From an uncultured Candidatus Cloacimonadota bacterium (GTDB lineage Bacteria; Cloacimonadota; Cloacimonadia; Cloacimonadales; CAYQPF01): 64,000 nucleotides of DNA. Within the stretch, counting starts at the first letter, position 1; each line of letters starts with the position of its first letter. Location: positions 45,424 through 109,423 of the forward strand of contig CAYQPF010000001.1 in NCBI GenBank assembly GCA_964419225.1, given 5' to 3'. The position numbers and the translations under genes are program-made. This document shows, one piece after another, positions 15,059 to 52,477 of this stretch. Under the pieces are notes generated by a model. The model had not been told where the DNA came from and did no database searches. It was given only the letters and a program-made list of their open reading frames with translations.

Positions 15059-15091
15059 TCAGAAATTCAGGTGGGAAGAAGGAGGTTACAG

Positions 15092-15432: not shown

Positions 15433-15767
15433 GGAAAAACTAATTCCGCACTTACCCTAAATTTGGTAAATTAGTTATAGATATCCTAACGATTGTATAT
15501 TTTATATTAGTGTCAGAAATCAAATAGGGGTCTAGATGGAAGCTAGTAAGAAGCTAAAGAGAAGCATATAGGCAACAATGAGTGTTTTTTTGAAAATAAA
15601 CAGGGAAAATGAACAAGTTTTGATATACTTTAGATAAACACGATAATGTTTTCATGTTAGTGTAATAAATTTGTATTGTTTTATATTGATATTTTTTCAT
15701 TTGACAAATATTGGAGAGTATTGTTATTTATACTAAGTATATAAAATTATTAAGAAAGGAATAAATA

Positions 15768-20241: not shown

Positions 20242-20347
20242 CAAATTCAACAAACCTGTTGACAACAAATCTAAGAATTAGTTGTTTTATTTAAGAGAAA
20301 TAGTTTGAGATAGTTAGAGAGAAAAGCAAAAAAGGGATGAGCAAAGA

Positions 20348-21496
20348 ATGAGTACATTACCGTTGAACAGGGAGATACTTTTTTGGGGAATGGAGCGATC
20401 CGGGCTGAATGAAGAAGCATTGGAGGAGAAGTTTCCCAAGATAAGGAAATGGATAAGCGGAGCGACAGAGCCGACTTTCAAGCAATTGGAAGATTTGGCG
20501 AAGGCTGTGTTTATACCATTCGGCTATTTTTTTCTGTCTAAACCTCCGGCTGAGAAGTTACCCATTCCATTTTATCGTACTGTTAAAAGTGGTGAGAATA
20601 ATCAGATCAGTCCCAATCTTTTAGAGACAATTTATGCCATGCAGAGACGGCAAATCTGGCTACAGGAATACAAAATAGAGAATGAATATGAACCGTTGGA
20701 GTATGTAGCTTCTGCAGGGGAAAAAGAAAGTCCGGTGAAAGTAGCGGAAGAGATAAGAAAGGTGCTTGGACTGGAAGAGAACTGGACTTGCTCTTTACCC
20801 AATAAGGATGAAGCACTAAGACATTTCAGATATGTAATTGAAAATGCCGGAATAACAGTCATGGCAAATGGAATTGTGGAAAACAATACGCACAGAAGAT
20901 TGAGTGTGAAAGAGTTTCGGGGTTTTGTGTTGGTGGATAAATATGCACCCCTGATCTTTGTGAATAATTCCGACAGCAAGGCAGCCCAAATGTTTACGCT
21001 GGCACATGAACTGGCACATGTTTGGTTTGGGAGTAGCGGGGTATTTGATTTAAGGCAATTACAGCCTTCTGAGGATGTGAAAGAGATTGTGTGTAATCAG
21101 GTCGCAGCAGAATTGTTGATATCGACGAGATTGGTCAGGCATACCTGGGAAAAGACAGAGAATAAGAATGAGATTTACCGAGATATGGCAAAGAAGTTCA
21201 AGGTAAGCGAGATTGTGGTAGCGAGAAGATTGCAGGATTGTGGATTTATTACAAAGGAAGAGTTTTTGACATTTTATGATGAATACATAGAGAAACTGAA
21301 GAATATTACAAAAGTAAAACAAGGTGGAGGTGATTTTCTAAATAATCAGAATCTCCGCGTTAATAAGCAATTTATGAGTCTTGTTCTTCAGGCATTGGGT
21401 GAAGGGAAGATACAATACACAGAAGCATATCGGCTGACAGGTTTACACAGAAAATCTTTCGAGGATTTTGCGTTTAGAGTAACAGGGAAGCCCTGA
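20348..21496 (+). CDS. ImmA/IrrE-family zinc metallopeptidase (COG2856/DUF955) with N-terminal HTH-like domain
   Basis: N-terminus LNEEALEEKFPKIRKWISGATEPTFKQLEDLAKAVFIPFGYFFL. HExxH motif FTLAHELAHVWFG. Confidence 0.85.
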   Translation: MSTLPLNREILFWGMERSGLNEEALEEKFPKIRKWISGATEPTFKQLEDLAKAVFIPFGYFFLSKPPAEKLPIPFYRTVKSGENNQISPNLLETIYAMQRRQIWLQEYKIENEYEPLEYVASAGEKESPVKVAEEIRKVLGLEENWTCSLPNKDEALRHFRYVIENAGITVMANGIVENNTHRRLSVKEFRGFVLVDKYAPLIFVNNSDSKAAQMFTLAHELAHVWFGSSGVFDLRQLQPSEDVKEIVCNQVAAELLISTRLVRHTWEKTENKNEIYRDMAKKFKVSEIVVARRLQDCGFITKEEFLTFYDEYIEKLKNITKVKQGGGDFLNNQNLRVNKQFMSLVLQALGEGKIQYTEAYRLTGLHRKSFEDFAFRVTGKP

Positions 21497-21987
21497 TGAC
21501 AGATGAACCAGTCTTTGTTTTAGATGCGAATGTATTTATCGGAGCAAAGAATGGTTATTATGCATTTGATATAGTGCCGGCATTTTGGGAAAAACTGATT
21601 GAGTATGCCTCAGAAGGAAGAATTGCCAGTACAATTCAGGTATGGGAAGAGCTTACAATTGGAAGTGATGAGCTGGTAGAATGGGTTAAACACAACTTTA
21701 AGAATTATTTTTTACACACTGATAATATGTTCGTTATCGAAGCATATACGAAAATTATAAATTGGGTACAGAGTGAAAATTATTTAGATGCAGTAAAAGA
21801 GGATTTTGCCAAAATAGCAGATGGGTGGATAATCGCTTATGCAATGGCACATAATGGAATAGTGGTAACGCATGAAATGCCAAGTCTGAGCAAAAAGAAG
21901 ATACCGATGCCCAATATTTGTGAGGTATTTGGGGTGAAGTATGTGAATACATTTGAGATGATGCGAATGCTGGGAGTGAAGCTGTAA
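21496..21987 (+). CDS. DUF4411 family PIN-like protein (putative nuclease/toxin partner of ImmA/IrrE)
   Basis: The start overlaps the upstream stop (TGATG). N-terminus VFVLDANVFIGAKNGYYAFDIVPAFWEKL is typical of DUF4411. Confidence 0.8.
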   Translation: MTDEPVFVLDANVFIGAKNGYYAFDIVPAFWEKLIEYASEGRIASTIQVWEELTIGSDELVEWVKHNFKNYFLHTDNMFVIEAYTKIINWVQSENYLDAVKEDFAKIADGWIIAYAMAHNGIVVTHEMPSLSKKKIPMPNICEVFGVKYVNTFEMMRMLGVKL

Positions 21988-22007
21988 GTAAGGTTAGGTG
22001 TCAGGGC

Positions 22008-22142
22008 CCAATGTCATTAACTTAAGCTGGATAGACTGGCTTTGGCTCAACTTTCCACATGGAACGCTGGCTTTAGCCGGTAATTCTGTATGCTTTAGCT
22101 TACGGAAAAAACTATCATTTTCCCTTAAGTCAATGACATTGG
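22008..22142. mobile_element. MITE-like 135-bp insert with 19-bp terminal inverted repeats, sitting inside a CAGGTGT heptamer array
   Basis: Left arm ccaatgtcattaacttaag (22008-22026); right arm cttaagtcaatgacattgg (22124-22142), 18/19 complementary. It contains the 44-nt dispersed core also seen at 5634-5677. Confidence 0.4.
22060..22103 (-). repeat. 44-nt dispersed repeat core (inverted copy)
   Basis: The reverse complement equals gtaagctaaagcatacagaattaccggctaaagccagcgttcca, identical to 5634-5677. Confidence 0.85.
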
Positions 22143-22187
22143 TCAGGTGCCAGGTGTCGGGTGTCAGTGGAAGGAAGGAAAAGAGAG
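22141..22187 (+). repeat. CAGGTGT-type heptamer array
   Basis: ggtcaggtgccaggtgtcgggtgtcagtggaaggaaggaaaagagag. Confidence 0.8.
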
Positions 22188-22303
22188 TGCTTAACCACCA
22201 CGTCAGGATTAGATTCCAGCATTATTTTGTTGCCACCACTCCGCCGGAAAGGAATTAAGATGTGGGCAGATAATATTTTAGATGCTTAAAAGATAGAGGA
22301 CAA

Positions 22304-25261
22304 ATGAATTACAATGAGAAATGTTATGAAGAGGTTTTGGAAGAAACACTATTAGAGTCGGGATATATTAAGTCAGAGATTACAGAATATCACAAGGCAA
22401 GGGCATTATTTCCTGAGCAGATAATATCGTTTATACAGTCAACTCAACCAAAAGAGTGGGAATATTTGTATAATTTGCATAAAGAAAATACCGGAGCTGT
22501 GATTATTGAGGATTTAGGCAAGGCACTTAATTCTGAGTATGAGGGATGTCTATATGTGTTAAGGCATGGATTCAAGTGTTATGGAAAGACACTTAAGACT
22601 GCATATTTTGCTCCGGTTAGTAATCTGAATCCGGAAATACAAAGACTCTATGATGCTAACAGGCTGAGTATTACTCGTCAACTCATGTATTCGGAAAAAA
22701 ATAATAACAGTCTGGACATGGTTATCAGTCTGAATGGGATACCGATTATAACATTAGAGTTGAAGAATCCTTTAACAGGGCAGACCTGGCGGAATGCTAT
22801 TCATCAGTATAAGCATGACAGAGATCCGGGAGAGTTACTGTTCCAATTCAAGAAGAGAACACTTGCCCATTTTGCAGCAGATCCTGATGAAATATATATG
22901 ACAACGAGATTATCAGGAAAAGAAACACGCTTCTTACCATTTAACAAGGGATTGAATCAAGGAGCAGGTAATCCGCCTAACCCCAAGGGATACAAAACAG
23001 CATATCTTGCTGAAGAAATTTTACAAAAGGATAGTTTATTAGAAATAATTGCCCGGTTCTTACATTTACAAGTGGAAGAAAAAATGTTGGGTACACGTAA
23101 AATACGCAGAGAAAGTTTGATTTTTCCCAGATATCATCAGTTAGATTGTGTAAGAAGGATAATTACTGATGCCGGAAGTGAAGGAAGCGGGAAGAGTTAC
23201 TTAATACAACATTCGGCAGGAAGCGGGAAAAGCAATACAATTGCCTGGCTGGCACACAGACTGGCGAGTCTGCATAATGAGCAGGATAAGAGAGTTTTTG
23301 ATTCTGTTGTGGTAGTAACAGACAGACTGGTACTTGATCAACAGTTACAGGACACAATTTATCAGTTTGAGCACAAATATGGAGTTGTTTGTAAGATAAA
23401 TGAAGACTCGACACAGTTGGCAGAATGTTTGAAAAACGGGACTCCGATAATAATAACAACTTTACAGAAATTTCCTTATGTCACAGAAAAAGTGGGAGCT
23501 TTACCCCAAAGAAAATATGCAGTAATAATAGATGAGGCACACAGTTCACAGAGCGGAGAAAGAGCGACTGAGTTGAAAGGAGTATTAGGAGAAAATACGA
23601 ATAGAGAGGTTGAGGATTATGAAGACGTCATCAATCAGAATATGCAGAAGAGGGGACATCAGCCGAATATAAGTTTTTTTGCATTTACGGCAACACCTAA
23701 GTATAAGACACTGGAAGTTTTTGGAACAGCCCAAAAAGGAGAAACACCCGCAAGTTTTCACATTTACAGCATGAGACAGGCAATAGAAGAGGGCTTTATT
23801 CATGATGTATTAAAATACTACACAACTTACAAGACATATTTTGGCTTAATAAAATCAATTGAAGATGATCCGGAAGTAGATAAGCATAAAGCAGCCCGGG
23901 AATTGGCACGCTTCATGAGTATGCATCCTTATAATATATCACAAAAGACGGAAGTGATGATAGAGCATTTCCGCAGGCATACAAGGCATAAAATCGGCGG
24001 GAAAGCGAAGGCAATGGTGGTGACATCATCACGATTACATGCAGTCAGATACAAGCAATCCTTTGATGAATATCTACTGAGAAAAGGATATACAGATATA
24101 AGGACATTAGTTGCTTTTTCAGGAGAAGTAATTGATCCAGATGCTCCAGATTGTACCTATACAGAGCAGGGGATGAATCAGGGAGTCAGAGAAAAGGAAT
24201 TGCCGGAACGCTTTGGGTCGGATGAATATCAAATTCTGATAGTAGCTGAGAAATATCAAACCGGATTTGATCAGCCCTTGTTACACACAATGTATGTGGA
24301 TAAGCGGTTGGATGGAATACAAGCCGTACAAACATTATCCAGATTGAATCGCATACATTCAGGAAAAGAAGATACATTTGTTTTAGATTTTTATAATGAG
24401 AGTGATGGCATTGCAGAGGCATTCCAGCCATACTTTGAAACGACAAAGGTTGGCGAGAGAGTAGATGTTCACCAACTTTATGAAATAAAAATAAAGCTGG
24501 AAGCAGCACATGTTTTCTTTACAGAAGAAGTAGAAGAATTTGCACGGACATATTATAAACCTGTTAAGTATCACAACCCACAGGATCATGTTAAGTTAAA
24601 CCGTTGTCTTGATCCGGCAGTGGAAAGGTATTTGGGGTTGAGCGTGGAAGAACAGGATGAGTTTAAACGAAGTTTGACAGCATTTAGAAATCTTTACTCA
24701 TTCATTTCGCAGATAATACCATTTCAGGATTCTGATTTGGAGAAATTATATACTTATGTTCGCTTTCTAATAGCTAAACTACCTAAAGGTGCAAAAGGGA
24801 TTGTATATCATTTCGATGATGAAGTCGCTTTGAAATACTATAGATTGCAAAAGATAATGGAGGGATCTATAACACTTGAAACGGGAATTGGAGGAGAGGT
24901 TTCGGGGCCTTTGGAAGTAGGAACAGGTAAAGTCAAGGGCGAGTTAGTTGAATTATCAGAATTGATTAATATTTTGAATGAGAGATTTGGTACTAATTTT
25001 ACGACAGCAGATCAATTGTTTTTTGATTCTTTGAAGGAAGATGCTTTGGCTAATGACAAACTGCGTCAGGCAGCAGTTGTGAACACACTGGAGAATTTTG
25101 GAATAGTATTTCAAAAGCAATTGGAAGATATATTAATTAACCGGTTAGATCAGAATCAGACGATAGCACAGAAATTCTTTAATGAAGATGATTTTAAAAG
25201 AATAATAAGTCATACCTTGATGAAACAGGTGTATAAAGCAATCAATGAGGAGAAAGTCTGA
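22304..25261 (+). CDS. hsdR: Type I restriction enzyme, R subunit (nuclease + SF2 helicase/translocase)
   Basis: N-terminal PD-(D/E)xK (LDMVISLNGIPIITLELKN). Walker A QHSAGSGKSNT. DEAH box VIIDEAHSSQSG. Helicase C region QTGFDQP...QAVQTLSRLNR. Confidence 0.95.
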   Translation: MNYNEKCYEEVLEETLLESGYIKSEITEYHKARALFPEQIISFIQSTQPKEWEYLYNLHKENTGAVIIEDLGKALNSEYEGCLYVLRHGFKCYGKTLKTAYFAPVSNLNPEIQRLYDANRLSITRQLMYSEKNNNSLDMVISLNGIPIITLELKNPLTGQTWRNAIHQYKHDRDPGELLFQFKKRTLAHFAADPDEIYMTTRLSGKETRFLPFNKGLNQGAGNPPNPKGYKTAYLAEEILQKDSLLEIIARFLHLQVEEKMLGTRKIRRESLIFPRYHQLDCVRRIITDAGSEGSGKSYLIQHSAGSGKSNTIAWLAHRLASLHNEQDKRVFDSVVVVTDRLVLDQQLQDTIYQFEHKYGVVCKINEDSTQLAECLKNGTPIIITTLQKFPYVTEKVGALPQRKYAVIIDEAHSSQSGERATELKGVLGENTNREVEDYEDVINQNMQKRGHQPNISFFAFTATPKYKTLEVFGTAQKGETPASFHIYSMRQAIEEGFIHDVLKYYTTYKTYFGLIKSIEDDPEVDKHKAARELARFMSMHPYNISQKTEVMIEHFRRHTRHKIGGKAKAMVVTSSRLHAVRYKQSFDEYLLRKGYTDIRTLVAFSGEVIDPDAPDCTYTEQGMNQGVREKELPERFGSDEYQILIVAEKYQTGFDQPLLHTMYVDKRLDGIQAVQTLSRLNRIHSGKEDTFVLDFYNESDGIAEAFQPYFETTKVGERVDVHQLYEIKIKLEAAHVFFTEEVEEFARTYYKPVKYHNPQDHVKLNRCLDPAVERYLGLSVEEQDEFKRSLTAFRNLYSFISQIIPFQDSDLEKLYTYVRFLIAKLPKGAKGIVYHFDDEVALKYYRLQKIMEGSITLETGIGGEVSGPLEVGTGKVKGELVELSELINILNERFGTNFTTADQLFFDSLKEDALANDKLRQAAVVNTLENFGIVFQKQLEDILINRLDQNQTIAQKFFNEDDFKRIISHTLMKQVYKAINEEKV

Positions 25262-25270
25262 ACCAGCAAA

Positions 25271-25308
25271 GAGATGTTGATAGTTGATAGTTGAGAGTTG
25301 GGGGGAGG
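25271..25308 (+). repeat. GTTGATA-type heptamer array between hsdR and the orphan ORF
   Basis: gagatgttgatagttgatagttgagagttggggggagg. Its 3' end supplies the SD of the next ORF. Confidence 0.85.
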
Positions 25309-25312
25309 TGCC

Positions 25313-26437
25313 ATGAAGAATCCAGAATATTTAGAGAATGTGCGAAGTTTAAGAGAGAATTTAGAAAGATTAGATAAAGAAGCAATAAATGAATTAATCT
25401 TGCAGGGGACTAGTATAGATTTATGTGAATTTGATAGTCTGGATAAAGCAGAGCAAATTGAAAAGCTGGTATTGTATGTTTCAGATATTAAGACAGTGAA
25501 AAGGATACTTCTTTATTTACCTGAGAGTAGTATCTGTCTGATCAAAGAAGTGCTTTCCAATGCTGTGTATGATCCGAATATTTGTTCTGATGGAATTAAT
25601 AATTTAACTCAGTATTTCTTAGGTGTTCAGATAAGTAATAAGGATAAATGGAGAAAAGTGCGAGAAGGAACGGCATACGTTGAGGTTATGTATCTATATG
25701 ATGAAGTAAGACCGATACTTGAAGAAGTTGATTGGGAGGCTTTAGATCAGGAAAGAAGACAGATACAGCCTTTAATTGAGGTTATTCCAGCGATTCCCAA
25801 GTTTTATGGTTTGTTGGAAATGGAAAACATGATTATGATTTACCGGGCACAAAACGAGACATTGCTGACAGATGAGCAGATAACTGAGTATGTAACAGAA
25901 TATTATAATGAGTATTATCCAAGCTTTTACAGTGACTACATGGTGAGTGATGGCTTGATAATTGATAGATATATTTGCAGGTTTGAAGGTTATCTGGAAT
26001 TTTTGCAAAGGAATATTCAGGGAAAGCCAATGTATATACCAACGAAAGAAAATTTTACTAAAATATTGAATGATGAGTATTTTGAAGACATGCCTTTATT
26101 TATTCCTTTAGACAATTTTTTGTCCAGAAATTATGCCCATGAAAATGATATTTTACTACTGTTTTATGAGCCCTTTTTGGAAGAGGTAGAACTTTTTATG
26201 TATGACATCCTTGAACATTTCAATAAAGGAGGAGACTTGCAGGGAGCTCTACAGCTTATAAAGAAACAGGAATTGATGCCCAAAAAGCCTGAAGCAAGAA
26301 GAAAACTGAGTTTTTTATTGTTCAAGTTTTATTATACCACCAGATTTTGGTTTCATAGAGGGCATAGTCCCAGAGAGATGCAGAAAATAGAGGGAGTGAC
26401 TCATAGATATTTAGTGAAAAACAGGAAATATCAATAG
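25313..26437 (+). CDS. Hypothetical protein (374 aa) immediately downstream of hsdR
   Basis: ATG preceded by GGGGGGAGG. Long ORF on the same strand as hsdR, 51 nt after its stop. Rich in Tyr/Glu/Leu (YYNEYYPSFYSDYMV; RFWFHRGHSPREM). No motif recognised. Confidence 0.6.
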   Translation: MKNPEYLENVRSLRENLERLDKEAINELILQGTSIDLCEFDSLDKAEQIEKLVLYVSDIKTVKRILLYLPESSICLIKEVLSNAVYDPNICSDGINNLTQYFLGVQISNKDKWRKVREGTAYVEVMYLYDEVRPILEEVDWEALDQERRQIQPLIEVIPAIPKFYGLLEMENMIMIYRAQNETLLTDEQITEYVTEYYNEYYPSFYSDYMVSDGLIIDRYICRFEGYLEFLQRNIQGKPMYIPTKENFTKILNDEYFEDMPLFIPLDNFLSRNYAHENDILLLFYEPFLEEVELFMYDILEHFNKGGDLQGALQLIKKQELMPKKPEARRKLSFLLFKFYYTTRFWFHRGHSPREMQKIEGVTHRYLVKNRKYQ

Positions 26438-26460: not shown

Positions 26461-26700
26461 GGGAAATTGATAGTTGATTTGTGAGAAAAAGCTTTTTGGG
26501 AATGGACTATATGGACTAAATGGACTGTATGGACAAAAGGGACTTTGGAAATAGGTGCGGTGGGCCAGTAGAAAAGGACTGAGCATTAAGGATTGAGAAA
26601 AAGGACGCTTAATAGAACGCAGACTTACACGGACTGACACAGACTAACACGGACAAGAGAGGATATCTGAAGCTATAGTATGGTGGAATTGAAAAAGAGA
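26461..26700 (+). repeat. Mosaic of short periodic repeat blocks (GTTGATA, ATGGACT x4, GGACGCTTAATAGAACGC, ACACGGACTG x3); GGA/GGAC-rich
   Basis: ggaatggactatatggactaaatggactgtatggacaaaagggactttggaa...aaggactgagcattaaggattgagaaaaaggacgcttaatagaacgcagacttacacggactgacacagactaacacggacaagagaggat. About 13 GGA triplets in roughly 165 nt. Confidence 0.85.
26603..26654 (+). repeat. GGACGYTTAATAGAACGC-family repeat
   Basis: ggacgcttaatagaacgcagacttacacggactgacacagactaacacggac. Confidence 0.75.
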
Positions 26701-31063: not shown

Positions 31064-31114
31064 GGACGCTTAATAGAACGCGGATTGACGCAGAAACCGA
31101 GGTTAATCGCAGAT
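31064..31114 (+). repeat. GGACGYTTAATAGAACGC-family intergenic repeat
   Basis: ggacgcttaatagaacgcggattgacgcagaaaccgaggttaatcgcagat. Confidence 0.8.
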
Positions 31115-31166
31115 TTGAAAATTATTGTTTCGAAGCAAAAGAAGTATATTTTTTTCTAATAATAAC

Positions 31167-37994: not shown

Positions 37995-40382
37995 ATGTTA
38001 CGCAAAACAATACTTTTAATTGTCATATCTATCCAAATATCTTTATATGCCATAAATGTTATAATCAATGAAGTGATGTATGATCCTGTTGGCACGGATG
38101 ATTTTCATGAATGGATCGAGCTTTATAATCCCAGAGATATAGCAGTTAACCTGGAAGGGTGGGTCTTACTGTCTGGAGGAGAGGCTTTTGATACCACTTT
38201 TGTTTTTCCCCGCAAGATGATTCAGGCACATGGTTTTTTGCTAATTGGAGAGGAGGATGTGGAAAATGCAGATATTATTGCTTTATTGGATTTACAGAAT
38301 GGAGGTGCAGAATCAGACGGGATAAGGTTGATATCAGCAAATGGATATTATACAGATACTGTTTTATACGATTCACCTAACAGTAACGGACTTGGGGATG
38401 ACGAATCAAATCCTGGATGGGAGTTACTCCAGGATGTGGTGAGTGGACATAGTCTGGCACGCAAATCTGACGGAGTTGATACAAATTTAGCATCAGACTG
38501 GTTTGATTGTTCTATCCCTTCACCGGGGAAAACTAATGTTTTGTCGATAGATTTAGCGATTGAGAAAAGTTTTGTTAAGAAAAATTCACCTTCTCCACAG
38601 TTATTCACACTTATTAGCAACTTATCCACAAATTTGGTGGATAACTCTCCAATCTCTGTGGACATATATGTGGATAACTCTCTTTTCATACACATCACTG
38701 TATCACAGCTTATGCCTCTAGAAGTTTTGACAACAGTAACAGATTTGCCGAATTTAACTGAAGGATGCCGGAGAATAAGAGTTATATTAAATTATTCTCA
38801 GGATTCTAATCCTGGCAATAACAGTTATGAATTTCAATATTGGCAAGGCAGGTCGCCCTTGATCATTAATGAGATAATGTATGCCCCTGCCTCAGATAAT
38901 CAGGAATGGTTGGAAGTTTATAACCGGAGTGATTCTACCTTTTCTGCTGATTCTTTATTTATTGAGGATACTGGCGGAGGAAGAATAGAATTTTCGGGAA
39001 TGATTCATCCTTTTGAATACAAAATTATTTGTAGTAATCCTGAGCAAATGAAACAGAAATATATCTGGCTGACAGATGGGCAAATACTCCCGGCATCTTC
39101 CTGGACATATTTAAACAACACAGATGAGACTCTCAAACTGGAAATTGGAACTCAGCTTCTAGATTCAGTTTATTATAACGGTAGTGGAACGCAAAATAAT
39201 CATTCATTGGAAAGGAACAATCCATACTCCGAAGAGGGTCTTAACTGGAGTATATGCAATAGTGAGTTTACTGCAACGCCGGGACAGGTTAACAGTAATA
39301 TAATCATGCAAAATGATTTAGAAATATCTTTCATTTCTTTTGAAGTATCTGGTAATCAATTAATTCATAAGGTTTTTATCAAGAATACAGGATTGAATAA
39401 TATCCGCTCCTTTTTACTAAGACTTTATCAGGAAGAAGAGAATTTAGTATTGCTGGATTCAGTTGATATCATTATCGCTGACAGTATAAGCTATGTTTTT
39501 CAAACAGATTTACCTGAGGATACTTACTGTACATTTAAGTATGTAGCAGATAGTGCTGAGGACGAAAATCAGAGCAATAATTTCTGCATCAGCAAATATC
39601 TGAGCAAAACTCTTCCCTGTGTGATCAATGAAATCATGTACAATCCTTTGGTAGATGAGCCGGAATGGTTGGAAATTAGGGTTAATAATCCAGGCCTGAT
39701 GATAGATGATTTTTACCTTGTATCTGGTGAAGAAACAATAGTTGTAAAAAGAACAAATAAGCAATTCATTGTTTTGACTAGTACAGTAGAAGATTCAACA
39801 TTTCTGGCAGCATTGATCGATCATAATCTTGCAGACCTACAAAGAGGTTTACCTGCATTACTGAATACAGGTGAAAATCTTTGTTTTCAGGACAAGTGGG
39901 GTAATTGTTGGGACTCATTCTTCTATCAGCCATCCTGGAGTAAAGAAAAAGGTGTGTCGATTGAACGAGTGAATCATAATATACTGCCTTCAGATACAAA
40001 CTGGGGCTTTTGTCTGAATGAAAAAGGGAATACGATAGGGACAGAAAATAGTATTCTAATTCAAACAATTGTATCAAATGTAGGATTAACAGTCAATCCT
40101 GATCCTTTTTCACCATACAGAAATGAGAGGACAATGCTTACGATCAGGATACCGGAAAAGATCTCGAAAGTAAATTGCCGGATATTTGATTTGAAGGGAA
40201 GAATTGTAAAAAAGATCTCAGATCAGAAGTTACAACCGGCAGAGTTTAGTATTATCTGGGATGGAAAAGATGATAAAGGACAGAATCTTTTACCCGGAAT
40301 TTACATAATTCAAATGGAAGCCTGTGGCAATACTACAGGCAGACTGTATCGAAAGCAGAAAACCGTAGTAATCGGGAAGTAG
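37995..40382 (+). CDS. Secreted protein with three lamin-tail-domain (LTD) modules and FlgD/T9SS-like C-terminal domain
   Basis: LTD openings VIINEVMYDPVGTDDFHEWIELYNP, LIINEIMYAPASDNQEWLEVYN, CVINEIMYNPLVDEPEWLEI. C-terminus VNPDPFSPYRNE...GIYIIQMEA. Confidence 0.7.
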   Translation: MLRKTILLIVISIQISLYAINVIINEVMYDPVGTDDFHEWIELYNPRDIAVNLEGWVLLSGGEAFDTTFVFPRKMIQAHGFLLIGEEDVENADIIALLDLQNGGAESDGIRLISANGYYTDTVLYDSPNSNGLGDDESNPGWELLQDVVSGHSLARKSDGVDTNLASDWFDCSIPSPGKTNVLSIDLAIEKSFVKKNSPSPQLFTLISNLSTNLVDNSPISVDIYVDNSLFIHITVSQLMPLEVLTTVTDLPNLTEGCRRIRVILNYSQDSNPGNNSYEFQYWQGRSPLIINEIMYAPASDNQEWLEVYNRSDSTFSADSLFIEDTGGGRIEFSGMIHPFEYKIICSNPEQMKQKYIWLTDGQILPASSWTYLNNTDETLKLEIGTQLLDSVYYNGSGTQNNHSLERNNPYSEEGLNWSICNSEFTATPGQVNSNIIMQNDLEISFISFEVSGNQLIHKVFIKNTGLNNIRSFLLRLYQEEENLVLLDSVDIIIADSISYVFQTDLPEDTYCTFKYVADSAEDENQSNNFCISKYLSKTLPCVINEIMYNPLVDEPEWLEIRVNNPGLMIDDFYLVSGEETIVVKRTNKQFIVLTSTVEDSTFLAALIDHNLADLQRGLPALLNTGENLCFQDKWGNCWDSFFYQPSWSKEKGVSIERVNHNILPSDTNWGFCLNEKGNTIGTENSILIQTIVSNVGLTVNPDPFSPYRNERTMLTIRIPEKISKVNCRIFDLKGRIVKKISDQKLQPAEFSIIWDGKDDKGQNLLPGIYIIQMEACGNTTGRLYRKQKTVVIGK

Positions 40383-40386
40383 GGGG

Positions 40387-40438
40387 GGACGTTTAATAGA
40401 ACGCGGATCTTCACGGAATTCGCAGAAAAAACGCAGAT
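40387..40438 (+). repeat. GGACGYTTAATAGAACGC-family repeat, copy flanking the GxxExxY gene (left)
   Basis: ggacgtttaatagaacgcggatcttcacggaattcgcagaaaaaacgcagat. 51/52 identical to 40896-40947. Confidence 0.9.
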
Positions 40439-40495
40439 AAATGTTTTTTATGATGTTTGTTAAGATAGTAAAATGTAAAAGAAGATGGAGGAAAT

Positions 40496-40870
40496 ATGAT
40501 TGAGTTTTTGCATAAAGAAATCACGGAACAGATTATAGAAAGTTATTACAAAGTGTATAATCAGTTGGGGTATGGTTTTTTGGAAAAAGTGTATGAAAAT
40601 GCTCTTTGTAATACTTTGAAGCAAAAAGGATTAGTCTGCGAAAAACAAAAGCCCATATCTGTTTATTTTGAAAATGAAATTGTGGGTGAGTATTTTGCTG
40701 ATTTAGTAGTAGAAAACAAAGTAATTGTTGAGATTAAATCAGTGGAAAATCTTTGTAAGGACCATGAAAATCAGTTAATTCATTATCTTAAAGCTACTAA
40801 AATAGAGGTGGGATTGTTAATTAATTTTGGCAGAAATGCAAAATTCATCAGAAGAGTGTTCTCGAATTGA
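40496..40870 (+). CDS. GxxExxY protein (PD-(D/E)xK nuclease superfamily, PDDEXK_3)
   Basis: ESYYKVYNQLGYGFLEKVYENAL contains the family signature G-FL-E-KV-Y. 124 aa, typical size. Confidence 0.85.
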   Translation: MIEFLHKEITEQIIESYYKVYNQLGYGFLEKVYENALCNTLKQKGLVCEKQKPISVYFENEIVGEYFADLVVENKVIVEIKSVENLCKDHENQLIHYLKATKIEVGLLINFGRNAKFIRRVFSN

Positions 40871-40895
40871 AAATGTCGGAAAACTGATAGAAATA

Positions 40896-40947
40896 GGACG
40901 TTTAATAGAACGCGGATCTTCACAGAATTCGCAGAAAAAACGCAGAT
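40896..40947 (+). repeat. GGACGYTTAATAGAACGC-family repeat, copy flanking the GxxExxY gene (right)
   Basis: ggacgtttaatagaacgcggatcttcacagaattcgcagaaaaaacgcagat. Confidence 0.9.
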
Positions 40948-41075
40948 GGATAGTTTTATTATACTTTTCCATGTTTTGATGCTTAATAATTTCTTGAAAT
41001 TAGGCAATTAGGAACTGATTGGCTGTTAAAATTTATGAAACTGTTCTTTATGTCGCATTTATTTAATACAGATAA

Positions 41076-41123
41076 CTGCGAAAATCAGCGAATACTGTGA
41101 AAATCCGCGTTCTATTAATCGTG
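41076..41123 (-). repeat. GGACGYTTAATAGAACGC-family repeat, inverted copy
   Basis: The reverse complement reads cacgattaatagaacgcggattttcacagtattcgctgattttcgcag. Together with 40896-40947 it forms a long inverted repeat around a 128-bp spacer. Confidence 0.8.
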
Positions 41124-41164
41124 TATCTTCTTTGGGGGATAGATCAAGAATTGTATTGACTTTA

Positions 41165-41195
41165 TTTTCAATTGTAATATTATAAGTATGTATAA
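41165..41195 (+). promoter_or_regulatory. Possible sigma70-like promoter for comM/yifB
   Basis: TTGACT - 17 nt - ATTATA (or 19 nt - TATAAG), about 25 nt upstream of the GGAGG/ATG. Confidence 0.3.
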
Positions 41196-41219
41196 AAAAT
41201 TATAGCATATGGAGGTAAG

Positions 41220-42761
41220 ATGTACGGGAAAAGCATCTCTTATTCTTTGATCGGGATCAATGCAGAGCAGATAGAAGTTGAATCAGATATAAAGCCCGGA
41301 CTTTTCAAGTTCTCCATTGTAGGCTTACCTTCTGATTCTGTTAAAGAAAGTCGGGATCGGGTATCAGCAGCTATAAAAAATAGCGGATATAAGTTCCATA
41401 CAAACAATTATACTGTAAATTTAGCTCCTGCTGATGTTCGCAAGGAAGGTGTGGCTCTTGATTTACCTATTGCCATGGCTATATTGAATGCTTCCAGACA
41501 AATTTCCGGGAAGAATTTGGATAGATATGCTCTAATTGGAGAGTTGTCTTTGGATGGGGATTTACGTCCTGTTAAAGGAATACTACCAGTAGCTTTGGCA
41601 GTTAAGAGAGATAAACTGGAGGGATTGATCGTCCCCGAAGATAATGCCAGAGAAGCAGCAGTCGTAGAAGGTTTGAAAGTATATGGAGTAGCAAATTTGC
41701 GGGATGTGATTTCATTTTTGGAAGAAAAGCTTACAATTCATGCCTGTGAGGTTGATAGAACCACAATGTTTTCGGGTTATGATGAAAACCAGGTAGATAT
41801 GTTTGATGTTAAGAGTCAGATGCAGGCGAAGAGAGCCTTAGAAATTGCTGCCGCAGGGGGACATAATTTGCTGATGCTGGGTCCTCCAGGATCTGGTAAG
41901 ACTATGCTGGCCCGCAGAGTGCCGACAATTTTGCCGGAACTGACATTGGAAGAAGCTTTGGAGACGACCAAAATTCATTCAGTTGCAGGAATGATAGCTG
42001 GGAAGAGAAACAGTATTGTCTCTTCGAGGCCTTTTCGTTCACCGCATCATACTATAAGTGATGTGGCTTTAATAGGTGGAGGAGCTTATCCCAAACCGGG
42101 GGAAGTTTCTCTTTCACATAATGGTGTTCTTTTTTTAGATGAGTTACCGGAGTTTAAGAAGTCTGTACTAGAAGTACTGAGACAACCATTGGAAGATGGA
42201 GTTGTGACAATTTCCAGAGCATCACAAAGTCTCATTTTTCCGGCTAAGTTTATGCTGATAGCTTCCATGAATCCGTGTCCTTGCGGATATTACGGGAGTG
42301 AAATCCAGGGGCATACTTGTCAATGTTCTGAAACCCAAATACATAAATATCGTTCCAAAATCTCCGGACCTTTGCTGGACAGGATTGATTTGCATTTGGA
42401 AGTTCCGGCAGTTAAATTCAATGAATTCTCACAGCAACCGAATGGAGAAAAATCTGTTGAGATCAGAGTCAGAATCAATAAAGCCAGAAGAATTCAATTG
42501 GAAAGATATAAAAAGGACAGCATATATTGTAATTCTCAAATGAACCCTAAGCAGATCAGAACCTACTGTAAATTGAAGCCGGATTGTCAGGAGATAATGA
42601 AGTCTGCGATGCACAATATGGGTTTTTCAGCCAGAGCATATGACAGGATCCTGAAAGTGGCACGAACAATAGCAGATTTGGAGGGAGCACCGGATATTTT
42701 GATTCATCATATCAGCGAGGCTGTGCAGTACCGGACTTTGGACCGTAAGTACTGGGGGTAG
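41220..42761 (+). CDS. comM: YifB/ComM family Mg-chelatase-like AAA+ ATPase
   Basis: Lon-like N-terminal domain. Walker A GPPGSGKTMLARR. Walker B VLFLDELPEF. C-terminal SARAYDRILKVARTIADLEG. Confidence 0.93.
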   Translation: MYGKSISYSLIGINAEQIEVESDIKPGLFKFSIVGLPSDSVKESRDRVSAAIKNSGYKFHTNNYTVNLAPADVRKEGVALDLPIAMAILNASRQISGKNLDRYALIGELSLDGDLRPVKGILPVALAVKRDKLEGLIVPEDNAREAAVVEGLKVYGVANLRDVISFLEEKLTIHACEVDRTTMFSGYDENQVDMFDVKSQMQAKRALEIAAAGGHNLLMLGPPGSGKTMLARRVPTILPELTLEEALETTKIHSVAGMIAGKRNSIVSSRPFRSPHHTISDVALIGGGAYPKPGEVSLSHNGVLFLDELPEFKKSVLEVLRQPLEDGVVTISRASQSLIFPAKFMLIASMNPCPCGYYGSEIQGHTCQCSETQIHKYRSKISGPLLDRIDLHLEVPAVKFNEFSQQPNGEKSVEIRVRINKARRIQLERYKKDSIYCNSQMNPKQIRTYCKLKPDCQEIMKSAMHNMGFSARAYDRILKVARTIADLEGAPDILIHHISEAVQYRTLDRKYWG

Positions 42762-42810
42762 TTCAGGTGTCAGGTACCAGGTGTCTGGTGTCAGTGGGGA
42801 AAGGAGAGGG
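42761..42810 (+). repeat. CAGGTGT-type heptamer array
   Basis: gttcaggtgtcaggtaccaggtgtctggtgtcagtggggaaaggagaggg. The same family occurs at 22141-22187. Confidence 0.8.
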
Positions 42811-42850
42811 ACGTTTAATAGAACGTGGATTTACACGAAAAACGCAGAAA
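42809..42850 (+). repeat. GGACGYTTAATAGAACGC-family repeat
   Basis: ggacgtttaatagaacgtggatttacacgaaaaacgcagaaa. Confidence 0.75.
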
Positions 42851-42870: not shown

Positions 42871-42905
42871 TATAAAACGAAAAGGGCACAATTTCTTGTG
42901 CCCTT
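42871..42905 (-). terminator. Rho-independent terminator of the giant T9SS gene (possibly bidirectional with comM)
   Basis: Minus-strand reading: aagggcaca-agaaat-tgtgccctt followed by ttcgtttta. Confidence 0.6.
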
Positions 42906-42940
42906 TCTGCATTATTGTTTTGTTATGAGTGACTTGGTCC

Positions 42941-43028
42941 CTCAATTTAAGTTCGTATCATTTGATTACAGTTTTGAGATTATCAACACCATAAATATGA
43001 TATCTGAACCATAAGCTGGACGCTAGTC
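42941..43028 (-). repeat. Conserved ~85-nt element directly 3' of a T9SS-cargo gene stop (copy 3)
   Basis: Sense reading after the TAG: gactagcgtccagcttatggttcagatatcatatttatggtgttgataatctcaaaactgtaatcaaatgatacgaacttaaattgag. Confidence 0.85.
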
Positions 43029-46000
43029 CTACTTCATTAAGATCATCTTCCGGGTGGAAGAGTATTTTCCTGATTTCATTTTGTAGAAGTAGATACCGCT
43101 GGAAACAGATTTACCAGAAGCATCTCTGCCGTTCCAAACAGCTTTATAATTTCCGGCAGGTTGTTTCTTGTTCACAAGATTGGTAACCTTTTGACCGGAA
43201 ATATTATAGATATCGATCACTGTCAATCCGTCATCTTTCTGGGAATATTCAATTGAGGTGGAAGGATTGAAAGGATTAGGATAATTCAAACCTAATTTAG
43301 TATTAAGAACAGCAGGATTATGATCGTTGTTGCCGACAAAAGTAACCGGTGCTGTAGGTTGTGATTCACCGTTAGGTGCAGTATAAACTGCAGTCAAATA
43401 ATAAGAATACTCTATATTAACAGCTACTGTTGCATCGGTATAGGTTAACTGAGCAGCAGGTACAGTTGTTAACAGGGCATTATTACGATAGATCTTGAAA
43501 CTGGTCAGACTTCTGTTGGTTTCCTTCTTTTGAGTATTACCTCTGACTCCTTCAGGATTAGGAGCATTCCAGGTTAAAACGGCCTGATTATTCACATTTT
43601 GAACAGCCAAGTTGGTTGGAGGATTGAATACTGGAGGGATATTAACGAAGTCATCTGAGTTACGTGCAGTAAAGTAATTACCTTCAGCAGTGGAATTACA
43701 GATACCTGTAATGTGTTGCTGGTTGATAGGAATATCATTTCCGATATAATCAACACCCGGGAAGGAAGTACGGAAACTGCCGGCAGCAGAAGCATCATGA
43801 ACAGCATATACTGTATTGTTGGCAAAAGTGTCCATCACATCAAAATTAACAGAATTGATCTTGATTAATTCAGCTTCGTATTGTTCGAAGTTATTATTCA
43901 TTTCTGCCATAGTAATTACTTGAGGCGTAATCACATTACCTGTTGAAACTGGAGGTCCCGGATTCAAAACAGGTACAAATTGCAGCATATTGCCTGTTAC
44001 GACGAGTTTTCCTCTGATGTTAGCGATTGCATCACCGAGGTTGTAGTTTGTTGTAATGATACCATTATTGTCATCAATCAGGATTGCAGCGGAAGCATCC
44101 TGGATGTATTTCTGGTTTCTGAAGGTTTGTTTGAAAGTTAGAACAGCATTACCTGTGAGGATATAATCCAAGTTTGGATTGATTTCCACTGCTCTTAAAG
44201 CTGCAATATTGTTCAGATATGCAGGAAGCATAATAGTTTCAGTATTTGAAGGTAAGGATTCACCATCAGGATTAGCATAGATTGCTGTAATAAAGTATTG
44301 GTAGTATCCGCCGTTTGTTGCTTCTGCATCATGGTAGGTTGTTACCGTGGAAGCCAGGGTAGTTACCAGAATATTGTTGCGATATACTTTATAACCACTC
44401 AAGCTTCTGCTGAGCATAGATTGTTTCTTCAGATTATTTCTGACCATACCTGCAGGAACGGGAGCTTGCCAAGCCAGATCAATAAAGTTATTGCCCGGAG
44501 TAGCAGTCAGGTTCTGAGGAGGATTGAAATTCGTGGTTGCAGGCTGGAAGTCTGCCAATGTTCTTGGGGTAAGATAGTTACCATCTGCACGTGAATTACA
44601 GATACCTATGATGTGTTGAGCATCTGTAGGAATAGGTGTATTGATATAATTCATATCATAGAAAGTAGTTCTAAGATAACCATTTCCAGAAGCGTCATGC
44701 ATAGGGTATCTGATGCCATTAGCAAAGTTTCCGGTAGAGTCTATGGTTACATTGATGACTCTGACCAATTCAGATTCATAATCTTCGAAATTAGTATTTA
44801 AATCAGATATTGTAATGATTTGAGGATTGATCACATTACCTGTAGAGGTTGCAGTTCCTGGATCGGTAAGAGGAGTAAATTCGAGCATACCGCCGAATTC
44901 GACAAGCTTACCGCTTAACCCTGTAATACCATCACCGATATTGTAAGCTGAAGTAATTGCACCGGGAAGATCATCGATCATGATAGCTGCTGAAGCATCC
45001 TGGACAAATTTTTGGTGTCTGTAAGTTTGAGCGAAGGTGAGGATAACTTCGCTATTTAAGTTATAGACTGTATTTGTGCCGACAGGTTGAGTTCTGAGAG
45101 CTGCGATACTGTTCAGATAGACAGGCAGGGCAGCAACGACTGAGTTTGAAGGTGCAGATTCCCCATCGGGGTTAGTATAAACAGCAGTAACATAGTAAGT
45201 ATATGTGTTACCATTAACAACAGTATTATCCTGATAGGTCAATTCGGCAATAGGAGTATCAAACAAAGCGGTTCCGTTTCTATAAACTTTATATCCGGTC
45301 AGACTTCTGGTACTCTTTCTGGCTTGAGCAGGAGCTTGCCAATTGAGAGTAACGACACCGTCTGCAAGAACATAACTCAGATTTTGTGGTGCCACGAAAT
45401 CTGTGATTACAGTAAAGTCGGCAATGCTACGAGCTGTAAAGTAATTGCCGTCAACTCTGGAATTGAAAATACCGACAACTGTTACAGGTGTTGTATAAAC
45501 GGGGATACCGATATAATCAACATCATAGAAAGTTGTTCTGAATCTAACGGTATCAGCAGTTCCATTCGTTAATTGATAGACAGTACCGTTGGCAAAATTA
45601 CCGGTTGGATTAACGAAGGACAAGTTTTCAATTTTTACTAATTCGGCTTCGAATTCTTCAAAATTAGTTACAAAATGATTGGGAGTGACAATTTGGGGGC
45701 TGATAATATTTCCTACGGTAGTAGGAGGACCGGGATTTACTGACGGGACAAATTGAAGCATTCCTCCGAATTCGGAAAGAGTACCTGTTAAGTTAGTAAT
45801 ACCATCACCCACATTGTAAGGAGTCGCTAAAACACCCGTCATATCATCAACTAAAATACCACCGGTAGCGTCCTGGAAATATTTTTGATTTCTGAAAGTC
45901 TGTTTAAAAGTGAGAACCGCCATACTACTAACTGAATAGATAGTGGTTGTGCCGGGAGTTTGTGTTCTTAATGCAGCAAAATTTTCCAATACAACCGGGA

Positions 46001-49284: not shown

Positions 49285-49476
49285 ATGAGAAAGATCAATT
49301 TAAAGAAAATGGCCGTACTTACAATTAGTTTAGTTGCTTTTGTTGCAGCTATCAATTTCACTGGTTGTGCTAAGAAAACTGAAGAAGCAGTTCCTGCTGA
49401 CACAACTATGACAGCTCCTGCTGTTGATACAGCTGCTGTACCAGCTGCTGACACAACTGCAACTCCAGCTCAATAA
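49285..49476 (+). CDS. Small lipoprotein (63 aa) with Ala/Thr/Pro-rich tail
   Basis: AGGAGG SD. MRKINLKKMAVLTISLVAFVAAINFTGC lipobox. Tail AVPADTTMTAPAVDTAAVPAADTTATPAQ. A strong terminator follows directly. Confidence 0.7.
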   Translation: MRKINLKKMAVLTISLVAFVAAINFTGCAKKTEEAVPADTTMTAPAVDTAAVPAADTTATPAQ

Positions 49477-49496: not shown

Positions 49497-49533
49497 AGAC
49501 TGTCTGTTCGCCATAACAGACAGTCTTTTTTTA
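49497..49533 (+). terminator. Rho-independent terminator
   Basis: agactgtctgtt-cgccat-aacagacagtct followed by ttttttt. Confidence 0.85.
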
Positions 49534-49568: not shown

Positions 49569-50027
49569 ATGAAATTAGTTATTCAAAGAGTAGAAAAAGC
49601 ACAAGTTCACATAGACAACAAACTTCACTCAGAAATATCTGCCGGGTTATTGGTATTTTTGGGAATAACTCATACTGATTCTAGTCAGGAAATTGATTGG
49701 CTGGCCAAAAAACTGGTGGAGTTAAGGATTTTTGCCGATGAAAATGGAAAAATGAATCGTTCAATCCTGGATACACAGGGTGAGTTATTGATTGTATCTC
49801 AGTTTACCCTGTATGCTGATTGTCGCAGAGGAAGAAGACCGGATTTCATTGCTTCAGCACATCCCTTAATAGCCAATGACCTGTATCTCAAATTTTTGGA
49901 AAAAGTCAGGGAATTTGGACTGGATGTCAAGGAAGGGGTTTTCGGGGCAGACATGAAAATCAGTCTGGTAAATGACGGGCCTGTAACAATAGTGTTGAGT
50001 CAAGAGTCGTTAGTGGTTAATGGTTAA
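49569..50027 (+). CDS. dtd: D-aminoacyl-tRNA deacylase
   Basis: MKLVIQRV...GLLVFLGI...SQFTLYAD...GRRPDF...SLVNDGPVTI. Confidence 0.93.
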   Translation: MKLVIQRVEKAQVHIDNKLHSEISAGLLVFLGITHTDSSQEIDWLAKKLVELRIFADENGKMNRSILDTQGELLIVSQFTLYADCRRGRRPDFIASAHPLIANDLYLKFLEKVREFGLDVKEGVFGADMKISLVNDGPVTIVLSQESLVVNG

Positions 50028-50061
50028 TGGTGAGTGGTTAGTCTTGAGTCTTGAGTCATGA
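49994..50061 (+). repeat. GGTTAAT / TGAGTCT heptamer array overlapping the dtd 3' end
   Basis: gttgagtcaagagtcgttagtggttaatggttaatggtgagtggttagtcttgagtcttgagtcatgag. Confidence 0.8.
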
Positions 50062-50277
50062 GCCGATTGACGGATGCCGGGTATAGTAAATTCTGAGATT
50101 GATATATAAACGATATAGGAACTATATAAATATTATTTTAGAGCAGGATACAGGAAGTAGCACACACATAGATAACGCATTATAATACATACAAATAGCG
50201 AATAGGAAAAATAGATAAAAATGAAATGGCACAAGATATGCATTTATAAAAGAAAATGAATATTTAGTGGAGATATT

Positions 50278-51142: not shown

Positions 51143-51169
51143 AGGCAGATCAAGTGATCTGCCTTTTTC
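51143..51169 (+). terminator. Rho-independent terminator
   Basis: aggcagatc-aagt-gatctgcct followed by ttttc. Confidence 0.75.
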
Positions 51170-51207
51170 ATTACTGTTCACCACTCATTACTGACTACTC
51201 AACCCTG
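51169..51207 (-). repeat. Heptamer array (GTGAGTG/TGAGTAG type, C-rich on the plus strand)
   Basis: Plus strand cattactgttcaccactcattactgactactcaaccctg; reverse complement cagggttgagtagtcagtaatgagtggtgaacagtaatg. Confidence 0.65.
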
Positions 51208-52438: not shown

Positions 52439-52472
52439 GTTAACAGTTAATGGTTAATGGTTAATGGAGTGG
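52439..52472 (+). repeat. GGTTAAT heptamer array
   Basis: ggttaacagttaatggttaatggttaatggagtgg, lying between a stop codon and the next ATG. Confidence 0.8.
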
Positions 52473-52477
52473 AATAA

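Follow-up and report, generated by a model that had tools for sequence, protein, structure and literature searches.

Bacterial intergenic DNA holds an excess of heptanucleotide tandem repeats, known since 2007, that has no accepted cause. In the survey of long simple sequence repeats (LSSRs) by Mrazek et al. (2007), as summarized in PMC4679880, heptamers were the most abundant unit. The GGGAATC and GGGGAYT heptamers of Xanthomonas and Nostoc are 89–93% intergenic, and those of Xanthomonas lie a mean of 28 nt from the 5' neighboring open reading frame (ORF) versus 160 nt from the downstream ORF (Rehm et al. 2015, PMC4692102). Marine Beggiatoaceae carry intergenic heptamer repeats of the word TAACTGA (MacGregor 2015, PMC4679880). 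A survey of PD-(D/E)XK proteins lists the GxxExxY family with the remark 'function unknown, multiple transfers' (PMC3424549). Here we describe blocks of short tandem words in 64,000 nt of DNA from an uncultured Candidatus Cloacimonadota bacterium (contig CAYQPF010000001.1, positions 45,424 to 109,423; hereafter the window). An initial annotation, made from the letters alone, had treated these blocks as one family without a described counterpart. Their visually uniform mosaic instead mixes two unrelated and independent repeat systems: heptamer arrays, which fit the described intergenic heptanucleotide tandem repeats, and 9–11-nt blocks that belong to an element carrying a GxxExxY gene, an association of gene and repeat arms of which we found no description in the literature. 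We lean toward the view that the blocks as a whole are lineage-specific non-coding repeat DNA, inserted or expanded right behind stop codons.

Every block listed in the initial annotation was recovered, either in place or a few bases away. Tandem Repeats Finder (TRF) detected nine period-7 arrays of at least three copies in the window versus 0.23 expected from local-composition shuffles, together with three period-9 arrays (0.2 expected) and three period-10 arrays (0.05 expected). Although only ~10% of the window is intergenic, every array of period 7 or 9 was intergenic or overlapped a gene end, the same holding for two of the three with period 10. Self-matching of the intergenic DNA (6.8 kb) exceeded that of shuffles at lag 7 (z = 3.7) and lag 14 (z = 2.9), and coding DNA gave a lag-3 signal only. 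A lag-7 excess over shuffled sequence was the comparison on which the initial annotation had staked its claim, and the non-random, heptad-periodic character of the set is thus borne out. The concatenation of blocks into mosaics and the recurrence of words are likewise real.

Blocks are concentrated at gene ends. Of ten blocks behind a co-oriented gene, nine begin no more than 25 nt past its stop codon (P < 1e-5 under random placement), and two terminate in the following gene's Shine-Dalgarno sequence (25296–25312 and 52460–52477); both properties had been noticed in the initial annotation. Other parts of that description needed trimming. Of 17 intergenic regions 100 nt or longer, about 11 contain blocks, fewer than 'nearly every' would imply. 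One strand is almost free of C in the GTTGAGA and GGTNANT families (0–8% C), but not in GTCNTGA and CAGGTGT blocks (12–18%) or in 9–10-nt blocks (11–29%). Moreover, intergenic DNA outside the blocks already contains only 11.7% C on that strand, compared to 7.4% in heptamer blocks, so the G/C bias first attributed to the blocks is mostly the genome's own skew; G is truly above background (38% in blocks versus 21%). Both orientations do occur, but 14 of about 16 blocks are G-rich on the sense strand, and the orientation of 15 of 16 matches the sign of the local GC skew. Skew and the direction of genes agree across almost the whole window, so that their effects on orientation are inseparable here.

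The earlier exclusion of terminators and CRISPR stands. The units are direct repeats, and none of six blocks folded better than shuffles (z -1.96 to +1.0), with no RNA structure predicted; these values also rule out a structured-RNA reading. Real terminators adjoin the blocks and are not inside them. The units are contiguous and 7–10 nt long, whereas CRISPR consist of 24–48-nt repeats with unique spacers of similar length. A search of Rfam, at the gathering threshold and at E <= 1, gave no match in the window.

The 9–11-nt blocks (CACGGACTGA, CGCGGAT...) are united by a common head, TAATAGAAC. In the window, GGACGYTTAATAGAAC precedes CRCnGA(T) units at six places; two direct copies and one inverted copy are arranged around a 124-aa gene. 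Each copy forms an arm of ~45 nt, in which an outer head, (T)AATAGAAC, is followed by about four tandem CRCnGAT units at ~9-nt spacing; one arm sequence with CGGAT cores is TAATAGAACGCGGATCTTCACGGAATTCGCAGA. One full element spans 40387–41122. Its left, head-out arm (40387–40437, +) begins 4 nt past the stop codon of the upstream gene and is followed by the GxxExxY/PDDEXK_3 gene (40496–40870, +), an extra internal arm in direct orientation (40896–40946, +; 92% identical to the 40387 arm) and the inverted, head-out right arm (41074–41122, -), such that head-out inverted arms at 40387 (+) and 41122 (-) flank the gene. The protein matches PF13366 (PDDEXK_3, E = 2.5e-41) and TIGR04256 (GxxExxY, E = 2e-40), and the catalytic-type residues E30, D69, E79 and K81, intact here, are at least 99% conserved among GxxExxY homologues. 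The remaining three arms stand alone: 26603–26655 (+), consisting of GGACGCTTAATAGAAC and then CACGGACTGA units; 31064–31116 (+), directly past an intrinsic terminator; and 42809–42850 (+), between a heptamer array and the terminator at 42880–42907. The block at 26627–26655 and the one at 42809–42850, just 3' of the interval flagged in the initial annotation (42761–42810), are orphan arms of a cross-phylum GxxExxY element. CACGAATTW (14370–14396, +) and GCGAATTWN (14483–14507, +) 9-nt arrays, the former resembling a degenerate CRCnGAT arm, look like decayed arms and were missed by the arm model described below.

The link between gene and arms was examined in 80 metagenome loci encoding homologues of the window GxxExxY protein (53–66% identity). 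Tandem arrays were 4.5-fold denser within 250 nt of the GxxExxY gene than farther away. All 44 of these near-gene arrays had a period of 9 or 10, nearly all with the CGGAT core, and none had a period of 7. A simple head pattern located 144 arms in 52 of the 80 loci versus 3 in shuffles, and 122 of 145 arms lay within 400 nt of a GxxExxY gene. The arm consensus reads A-ATAGAAC-RC-nGAT followed by three more CRCnGAT units at ~9-nt spacing. Within 400 nt of the gene, 48 arms lay upstream and pointed the same way as the gene, and 45 lay downstream and pointed the opposite way, the arrangement of head-out terminal inverted arms. Gene-less arm pairs form ~90-nt palindromic 'empty' units at other loci (L233, L204 and L179). 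An nhmmer model built from foreign arms alone recovered window arms at 41117–41074 (the right arm and best match, E = 6e-4), 31071 (E = 0.007), 40394, 40903 and 26610; the sixth, at 42809, was identified by direct repeat alignment. The window-specific arm head GGACGYTTAATAGAACGYRGA had no match in viral contigs. A near-threshold match to the Rfam RNA Flavo-1 (37.7 bits versus a gathering score of 42) occurs in locus L173 (1744–1830), where the arms hold CGGAUUGAAGCGGAAAGC units resembling CRCnGAT units; this motif may be related to the GxxExxY arm family.

A comparison of gene neighborhoods captured the element as an insertion. In two related Cloacimonadota (L340 and L342), the spacer between the LTD/FlgD_ig and ComM-like genes is 11–20 nt. 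The same spacer in the window (40383–41219) measures 837 nt and holds the arm, GxxExxY gene, second arm and inverted arm, plus a promoter-like TTGACT-16-TATTAT at 41156–41183. With gene order the same, the difference in length indicates that the GxxExxY element is inserted DNA. The ComM-like gene appears to have acquired its own promoter from the 837-nt insertion. There is good support for reading the 9–11-nt blocks as the terminal arms of a mobile element that is compact and has a single gene, GxxExxY, encoding a protein of PD-(D/E)XK nuclease fold. The conserved nuclease-like protein would recognize the tandem units and cut at or near the head. By analogy with repetitive extragenic palindromic (REP) sequences and their REP-associated tyrosine transposases (RAYT), such cutting might move or copy the element and leave orphan arms behind.

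The heptamer arrays fall into the word families GTTGAKA, TGGTNAN, GTCNTGA, CAGGTGT and GGCAGnn. GTTGAKA arrays are the core of a dispersed 59-nt module, CAGGGGGCAG..(GTTGAKA)x5..GTTGGGGGA. The 59-nt stretch CAGGGGGCAG..GAGAAGTTGATAGTTGAGAGTTGAAAGTTGAGAGTTGGGGGA occurs at 11101–11159 (+) and, inverted, at 2888–2946 (-); the two are 93% identical and have their non-repeat ends in common. At 11085–11158 (+) GGCAGnn heptamers lead into the second copy, between two divergent promoter-like sites, with a GTGAGTG/GTAAATG array of the TGGTNAN family close behind (11161–11196, +). A shorter copy of the module occupies 25268–25315, where the GTTGAKA array proper (25270–25303, +) has the tail GGGGGGAGG, which is the Shine-Dalgarno sequence of the ATG at 25313; another copy lies just past the window start. 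A weak GTTGAKA array of about 2.5 units is found at 26465–26486 (+). At the window edge (1–24, -), GTGAGTA words and then GGCAGnn heptamers occupy the 3' flank of an FtsX-like gene, and contig L245 of the Logan assemblies shows GTCNTGA and GTTGAGA arrays beyond it. Both ends of L245 (window -90 to 2917) fall inside GTTGAGA arrays, which suggests that these sequences are multi-copy and that the modules fragment short-read assemblies. The inverted pair of 59-nt modules at 2888 and 11101 was considered as an inversion switch and rejected, the skew pattern giving no support for a recent inversion.

GTCNTGA arrays, in the form TGAGTCT, occur at 14413–14441 (+) and 14578–14612 (+) as copies 1 and 2 of a ~170-nt higher-order repeat, and a three-copy GATCAACACT 10-nt array is found at 14533–14563 (+). 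A GTCTTGA array (50037–50062, +) adjoins a TGGTNAN (GGTTAAT/GTGAGTG) array that lies over the last codons of dtd (50005–50040, +). In the same family are a degenerate, oppositely oriented array between a terminator and the next promoter-like site (51169–51207, -) and a GGTTAAT x4.3 array (52439–52468, +) that takes up a 39-nt operon spacer, its terminal GGAG preceding the ATG at 52478. CAGGTGT arrays comprise the 4.6-unit array of the flagged interval, which begins 1 nt past the ComM-like stop codon and ends in GTCAGTGGGGAAAGGAG (42763–42797, +), a short two-unit array 5 nt past a stop codon (21993–22007, +), and an array ending in GTCAGTGGAAGG (22143–22170, +). Copies of the GTCNTGA and CAGGTGT arrays have in common the start motif ..TATAG and the end motifs GTCAGTGGGGAA and GTCTGTGGGAAAT. 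Modules in general start with a purine-rich stretch or ..ATAG and finish with a TGGGGRA tail, and their ends lack terminal inverted repeats. None of the words GTTGAKA, TGGTNAN, GTCNTGA and CAGGTGT has a G3 run, and runs of G are confined to module ends. None of the window heptamer arrays has a local inverted partner; only 51169–51207 is inverted relative to a neighboring array, 1.1 kb off. Two 9-nt arrays of the word ATGGACTNT complete the set (2797–2830, -, 3.3 copies; 26501–26535, +, 3.7 copies). Between the last two CAGGTGT arrays sits a 135-nt unit (22008–22142) resembling a miniature inverted-repeat transposable element (MITE). It has 19-nt terminal inverted repeats, CCAATGTCATTAACTTAAG, that are 95% complementary, and its core is a 49-nt hairpin element that recurs inverted at 5629–5677 (96% identical).

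Heptamer arrays are not confined to this organism. Period 7 was the commonest short tandem period in 1.19 Mb around enolase from 80 unrelated species (53 arrays in 20 loci), and some of these loci are far denser in arrays than the window, among them Verrucomicrobiota L031 (10 arrays in 11.7 kb) and Zixibacteria L079 (7 arrays in 4.3 kb). Two compact IMG/VR contigs that encode phage structural proteins, L161 (head completion protein) and L085 (prohead protease), carry heptamer arrays in many intergene spacers, often as adjacent inverted pairs. The idea that the words themselves are special and common to phyla was ruled out. Stretches of AGTTGAN x3.7 numbered 81 in IMG/VR and those of CAGGTGN 18, and two scrambled words also formed arrays (16 and 45). 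Nor are the heptamers part of the GxxExxY element, since in its 80 loci 24 of 30 heptamer arrays lay at least ~1 kb from arms or in loci without arms. Conversely, GxxExxY genes as companions of heptamer-rich loci were discarded after the 80 enolase loci yielded no homologue.

The closest relatives of the window enolase and ComM-like ATPase are from Cloacimonadota and only 70–72% identical, which places the host in a Cloacimonadota lineage that lacks a close sequenced relative; an enolase search of genome contigs gave no close relative (best match 72% identical). Nine loci of other Cloacimonadota (112 kb) contained no period-7 arrays and no arm heads. Between the ComM-like gene and the next gene, the spacer is 13–23 nt in relatives versus 267 nt in the window. 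Together, the array-free 112 kb and the short spacers indicate that the heptamer arrays are recent in this lineage.

Anatomy and comparison therefore support the heptamer blocks as heptanucleotide simple-sequence arrays of the described bacterial type, present here as modules copied between intergenic sites. Once in place, such modules would grow and shrink through 7-nt replication slippage, and would persist at sites that tolerate insertions, in the stretch from a stop codon to the following signal. The G-rich, C-poor sense strand would largely reflect the strong strand skew of the genome, and the use of some tails as ribosome-binding sites would be incidental. Most probably, the heptamer arrays have no dedicated cellular function. 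Several points weigh against this account and its counterpart for the GxxExxY element. Stop-codon adjacency, co-orientation with genes and the arrays among phage structural genes would be compatible with an RNA-level function as well, and the block starts used in the adjacency test were set by eye. Copying of heptamers between sites is a putative process read from shared module ends. The join at 2888–2946 in the metagenome-assembled genome (MAG) could be an assembly artifact between two copies of one module. The organism's only other assembly consists of Logan contigs from run SRR13723396, a single sample and the same one as for the window; three contigs were found, each matching the window at 100% identity. 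For mobility of the GxxExxY element the evidence is one empty-site comparison at ~69% protein identity, a clean target-site duplication was not seen around it at the window site, and nuclease activity and arm recognition by its protein are putative, being predicted from sequence.

A possible, though for this window doubtful, alternative arises from the bracketing of small genes by heptamer arrays in other phyla. Here, the arrays would be stem-forming arms of small selfish cassettes that carry a four-helix-bundle gene of PF05635/TIGR02436, the family of the 23S rRNA intervening-sequence protein, the solo arrays of the window being orphaned or trans-mobilized arms; in RNA, two inverted arrays would pair into a ~30-bp stem cleavable by RNase III, like rRNA intervening sequences (IVS). 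All 13 of 13 PF05635/TIGR02436 genes examined in other phyla (two in L055 and one each in L061, L243, L244, L188, L173, L326, L328, L329, L330, L332 and L334) are bracketed by inverted heptamer arrays, usually beginning a few nucleotides past the upstream stop codon. The bracketing words vary by clade (TAGGGGT, GGACTCG, GGCATTC, TTAGCGA and ATTTCAG), and the arms of L244 are perfectly complementary over 32 nt. Related PF05635 proteins carry related words, (T)TAGGGR, in hosts ranging from AT-rich (L332) to GC-rich (L055, 62% GC), and the cassette behind enolase is absent from a related Terriglobia locus. Two independent PF05635 cassettes sit directly behind enolase, in L055 and L330. Heptamer arrays in other phyla are commonly inverted pairs, with empty pairs having 13–130-nt loops being common, and in Coxiella the IVS with an S23p ORF has at its borders a 28-bp stem that RNase III cleaves (PMC4990558). 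However, the window encodes no PF05635 homologue and no array in it has a local inverted partner, the single inverted array (51169–51207) being 1.1 kb from its neighbor. Elsewhere, heptamer and octamer arrays also flank phage structural genes and ordinary genes such as gatC and panD. Around these two genes in Nitrospiraceae locus L042 (668–1602), octamer arrays (GGTAATTG) alternate in orientation, and array bracketing is therefore not limited to selfish genes. For these reasons we retain the cassette explanation as a rival only. In our search of the literature, no link between the PF05635/TIGR02436 family and heptamer repeats was found. With the same reserve, the scheme might be generalized: tandem-word arrays would then be not slippage noise but recognition arms of two families of tiny selfish cassettes, heptamers serving four-helix-bundle genes (23S-IVS/Avd-like, pentameric) and 9-nt CRCnGAT units serving GxxExxY nuclease genes, with one unit per oligomer subunit and orphans trans-mobilized as REP are by RAYT.

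The remaining rivals fare less well. An unlikely one holds that transcripts of the arrays act as G/U-rich landing pads that lack structure and offer 7 nt per binding unit to an RNA-binding protein of the cold-shock-domain or S1 type, with effects on translation re-initiation, the stability of mRNA 3' ends or the loading of Rho. It draws on the lack of structure, the co-orientation with flanking genes, the stop-codon adjacency, the two arrays that provide a Shine-Dalgarno sequence, the elevated G content and the like arrays between structural genes of the phage contigs, and MacGregor has made a comparable proposal for the TAACTGA repeats (PMC4679880). Yet the arrays are missing from the relatives, orthologous spacers included, at least five unrelated words are in use, and arbitrary words form arrays elsewhere. 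Blocks also occupy places at which transcripts are not expected, one between divergent promoter-like sites (11085–11196) and one past a terminator (51169–51207), and the partner protein is hypothetical. A cis-regulatory role at the RNA level keeps a small probability. In-place slippage of whatever 7-mer was present, with no copying between sites, would account for the many different words and for heptamers as the modal tandem period across bacteria, and could invoke Mrazek's polymerase-footprint explanation, as quoted in PMC4679880 and PMC4692102. Against it stand the 59-nt module, whose non-repeat flanks are part of the 93% identity between sites 8 kb apart, the recurrence of each word, together with its start and end motifs, at 3–5 sites, and the non-random placement by stop codons. 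Because modules have flanks in common, purely local slippage is disfavored, and we judge it quite improbable. More improbable still are G-rich arrays as replication-oriented leading-strand marks like Chi or FtsK-orienting polar sequences (KOPS). The agreement of 15 of 16 blocks with the local skew sign, switching near 5–6 kb, is what such marks would produce, but replication and transcription orientation are inseparable in the window, GGGNAGGG is not enriched (2 matches versus 3.9 expected), and the arrays cluster at gene ends and not along the strand, besides being missing in relatives. A KOPS-like reading of GGGCAGGG was rejected at 2 matches versus 3.9 expected in the window.

Other features of the window bear on its composition and gene content. 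G+C content is ~38%, and GC skew is +0.2 to +0.3 across most of the window, which is very strong; skew is negative before ~5 kb and approximately zero after ~52 kb. Cumulative skew has its minimum near 5–6 kb, and the strong positive skew is lost after ~52 kb with genes still on the + strand. Candidate causes for the changes at ~5000–6000 and ~52000 are an origin-like switch, DNA of foreign origin, or misjoining of the MAG at a repeat. Clusters of DnaA-box-like 9-mers occur at 38591–38677 (six in 90 nt, inside the LTD/FlgD_ig gene) and 9237–9405 (four, around the spacer 9234–9315), and TTATCCACA, allowing one mismatch, occurs 47 times in the window versus 23 expected. A tRNA scan of the window found none. 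A type I restriction-modification island (14800–25261; hsdM, hsdS and hsdR) has repeat-rich spacers at its borders, an IrrE-type metallopeptidase gene and a DUF4411/PIN gene inserted before hsdR, and, ahead of it, a stretch that by eye resembles a Bro-N-like pseudogene fragment (~15090–15300). Type IX secretion C-terminal domains are present in window proteins. At the 3' ends of three type-IX-secreted proteins (5148–5255, 5751–5841 and 42946–43053), the last codons and 60–90 nt downstream, including GGACTAGCGTCCAGC, are 78–82% identical and form a conserved 3' module. A small lipoprotein-like ORF (49286–49468) has a 24-nt repeat (49394–49470) whose translation would be a repeat rich in proline, alanine and threonine, and a strong terminator lies downstream (49497–49526).

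Our findings add the phylum Cloacimonadota to the hosts of heptanucleotide repeats, in a setting where the repeats are clearly recent (spacers of 11–23 nt in relatives versus 267–837 nt here). They tie GxxExxY (PF13366), a widespread family of unknown function, to a conserved cross-phylum terminal repeat and an insertion event, and thereby assign it a role, that of a mobile nuclease element, which can be tested. The bracketing of four-helix-bundle IVS-protein genes by inverted heptamers provides a concrete hypothesis for the origin of heptamer arrays; were the arrays indeed cassette arms, the long-noted excess of heptanucleotides by the 3' ends of bacterial genes would be explained. On the practical side, heptamer modules break short-read assemblies, as in contig L245.

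Among known mobile sequences, the blocks recall MITEs in being short, non-autonomous, intergenic and multi-copy, and gene-less GxxExxY arm pairs form palindromes of ~90 nt. MITEs, however, have terminal inverted repeats and a target-site duplication, whereas heptamer modules lack terminal inverted repeats and a duplication was found for neither class. The 23S rRNA IVS with an S23p ORF of Leptospira and Coxiella (PMC4990558) are regarded as selfish and horizontally moved, and resemble the PF05635 loci in having a small ORF within stem-forming complementary ends. They sit in rRNA helices, while the window lacks the gene as well as inverted pairs of arrays; we found no literature describing IVS arms as tandem heptamers. 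The closest parallel to the GxxExxY element is the REPtron, formed by REP sequences or bacterial interspersed mosaic elements (BIME) with a RAYT gene. Both consist of a small gene between inverted short repeats, with orphan copies elsewhere in mosaics with other motifs. Each REP is a palindrome in itself, and RAYT belongs to the HUH/Y1 (IS200-like) transposases; the GxxExxY arm has a head and four direct 9-nt units, and its gene codes for a PF13366 protein of PD-(D/E)XK fold whose link to the repeat is one of sequence association.

The heptamer arrays find their counterparts among simple-sequence repeats. Like the short tandemly repeated repetitive (STRR) sequences of heterocystous cyanobacteria, they comprise several heptamer families per genome, intergenic and in arrays of 2–6 copies, but the STRR words CCCCAGT, TTGGTCA and CAACAGT differ from those of the window, as does the host phylum. 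TAACTGA repeats also often adjoin coding regions and overlap the ribosome-binding site, but lie mainly just upstream of start codons, whereas window blocks lie just downstream of stop codons. Compared to the heptamers of Xanthomonas and Nostoc, each with one dominant word, the window uses at least five families abutted in mosaics. Its words lack the G-quadruplex potential of heptamers with at least four G3 runs at heptad spacing, its arrays are almost all solo and co-oriented where Xanthomonas has about 70 convergent pairs, and its host belongs to a Cloacimonadota lineage whose relatives lack arrays. The likeness to these repeats and to LSSRs in general is nonetheless extensive: imperfect tandem 7-nt units in few to several copies, ~90% intergenic, at many loci per genome and with a G-rich strand. 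As in Xanthomonas, where mean distances are 28 versus 160 nt, the arrays lie nearer the 5' ORF, within 25 nt of it in nine of ten cases here.

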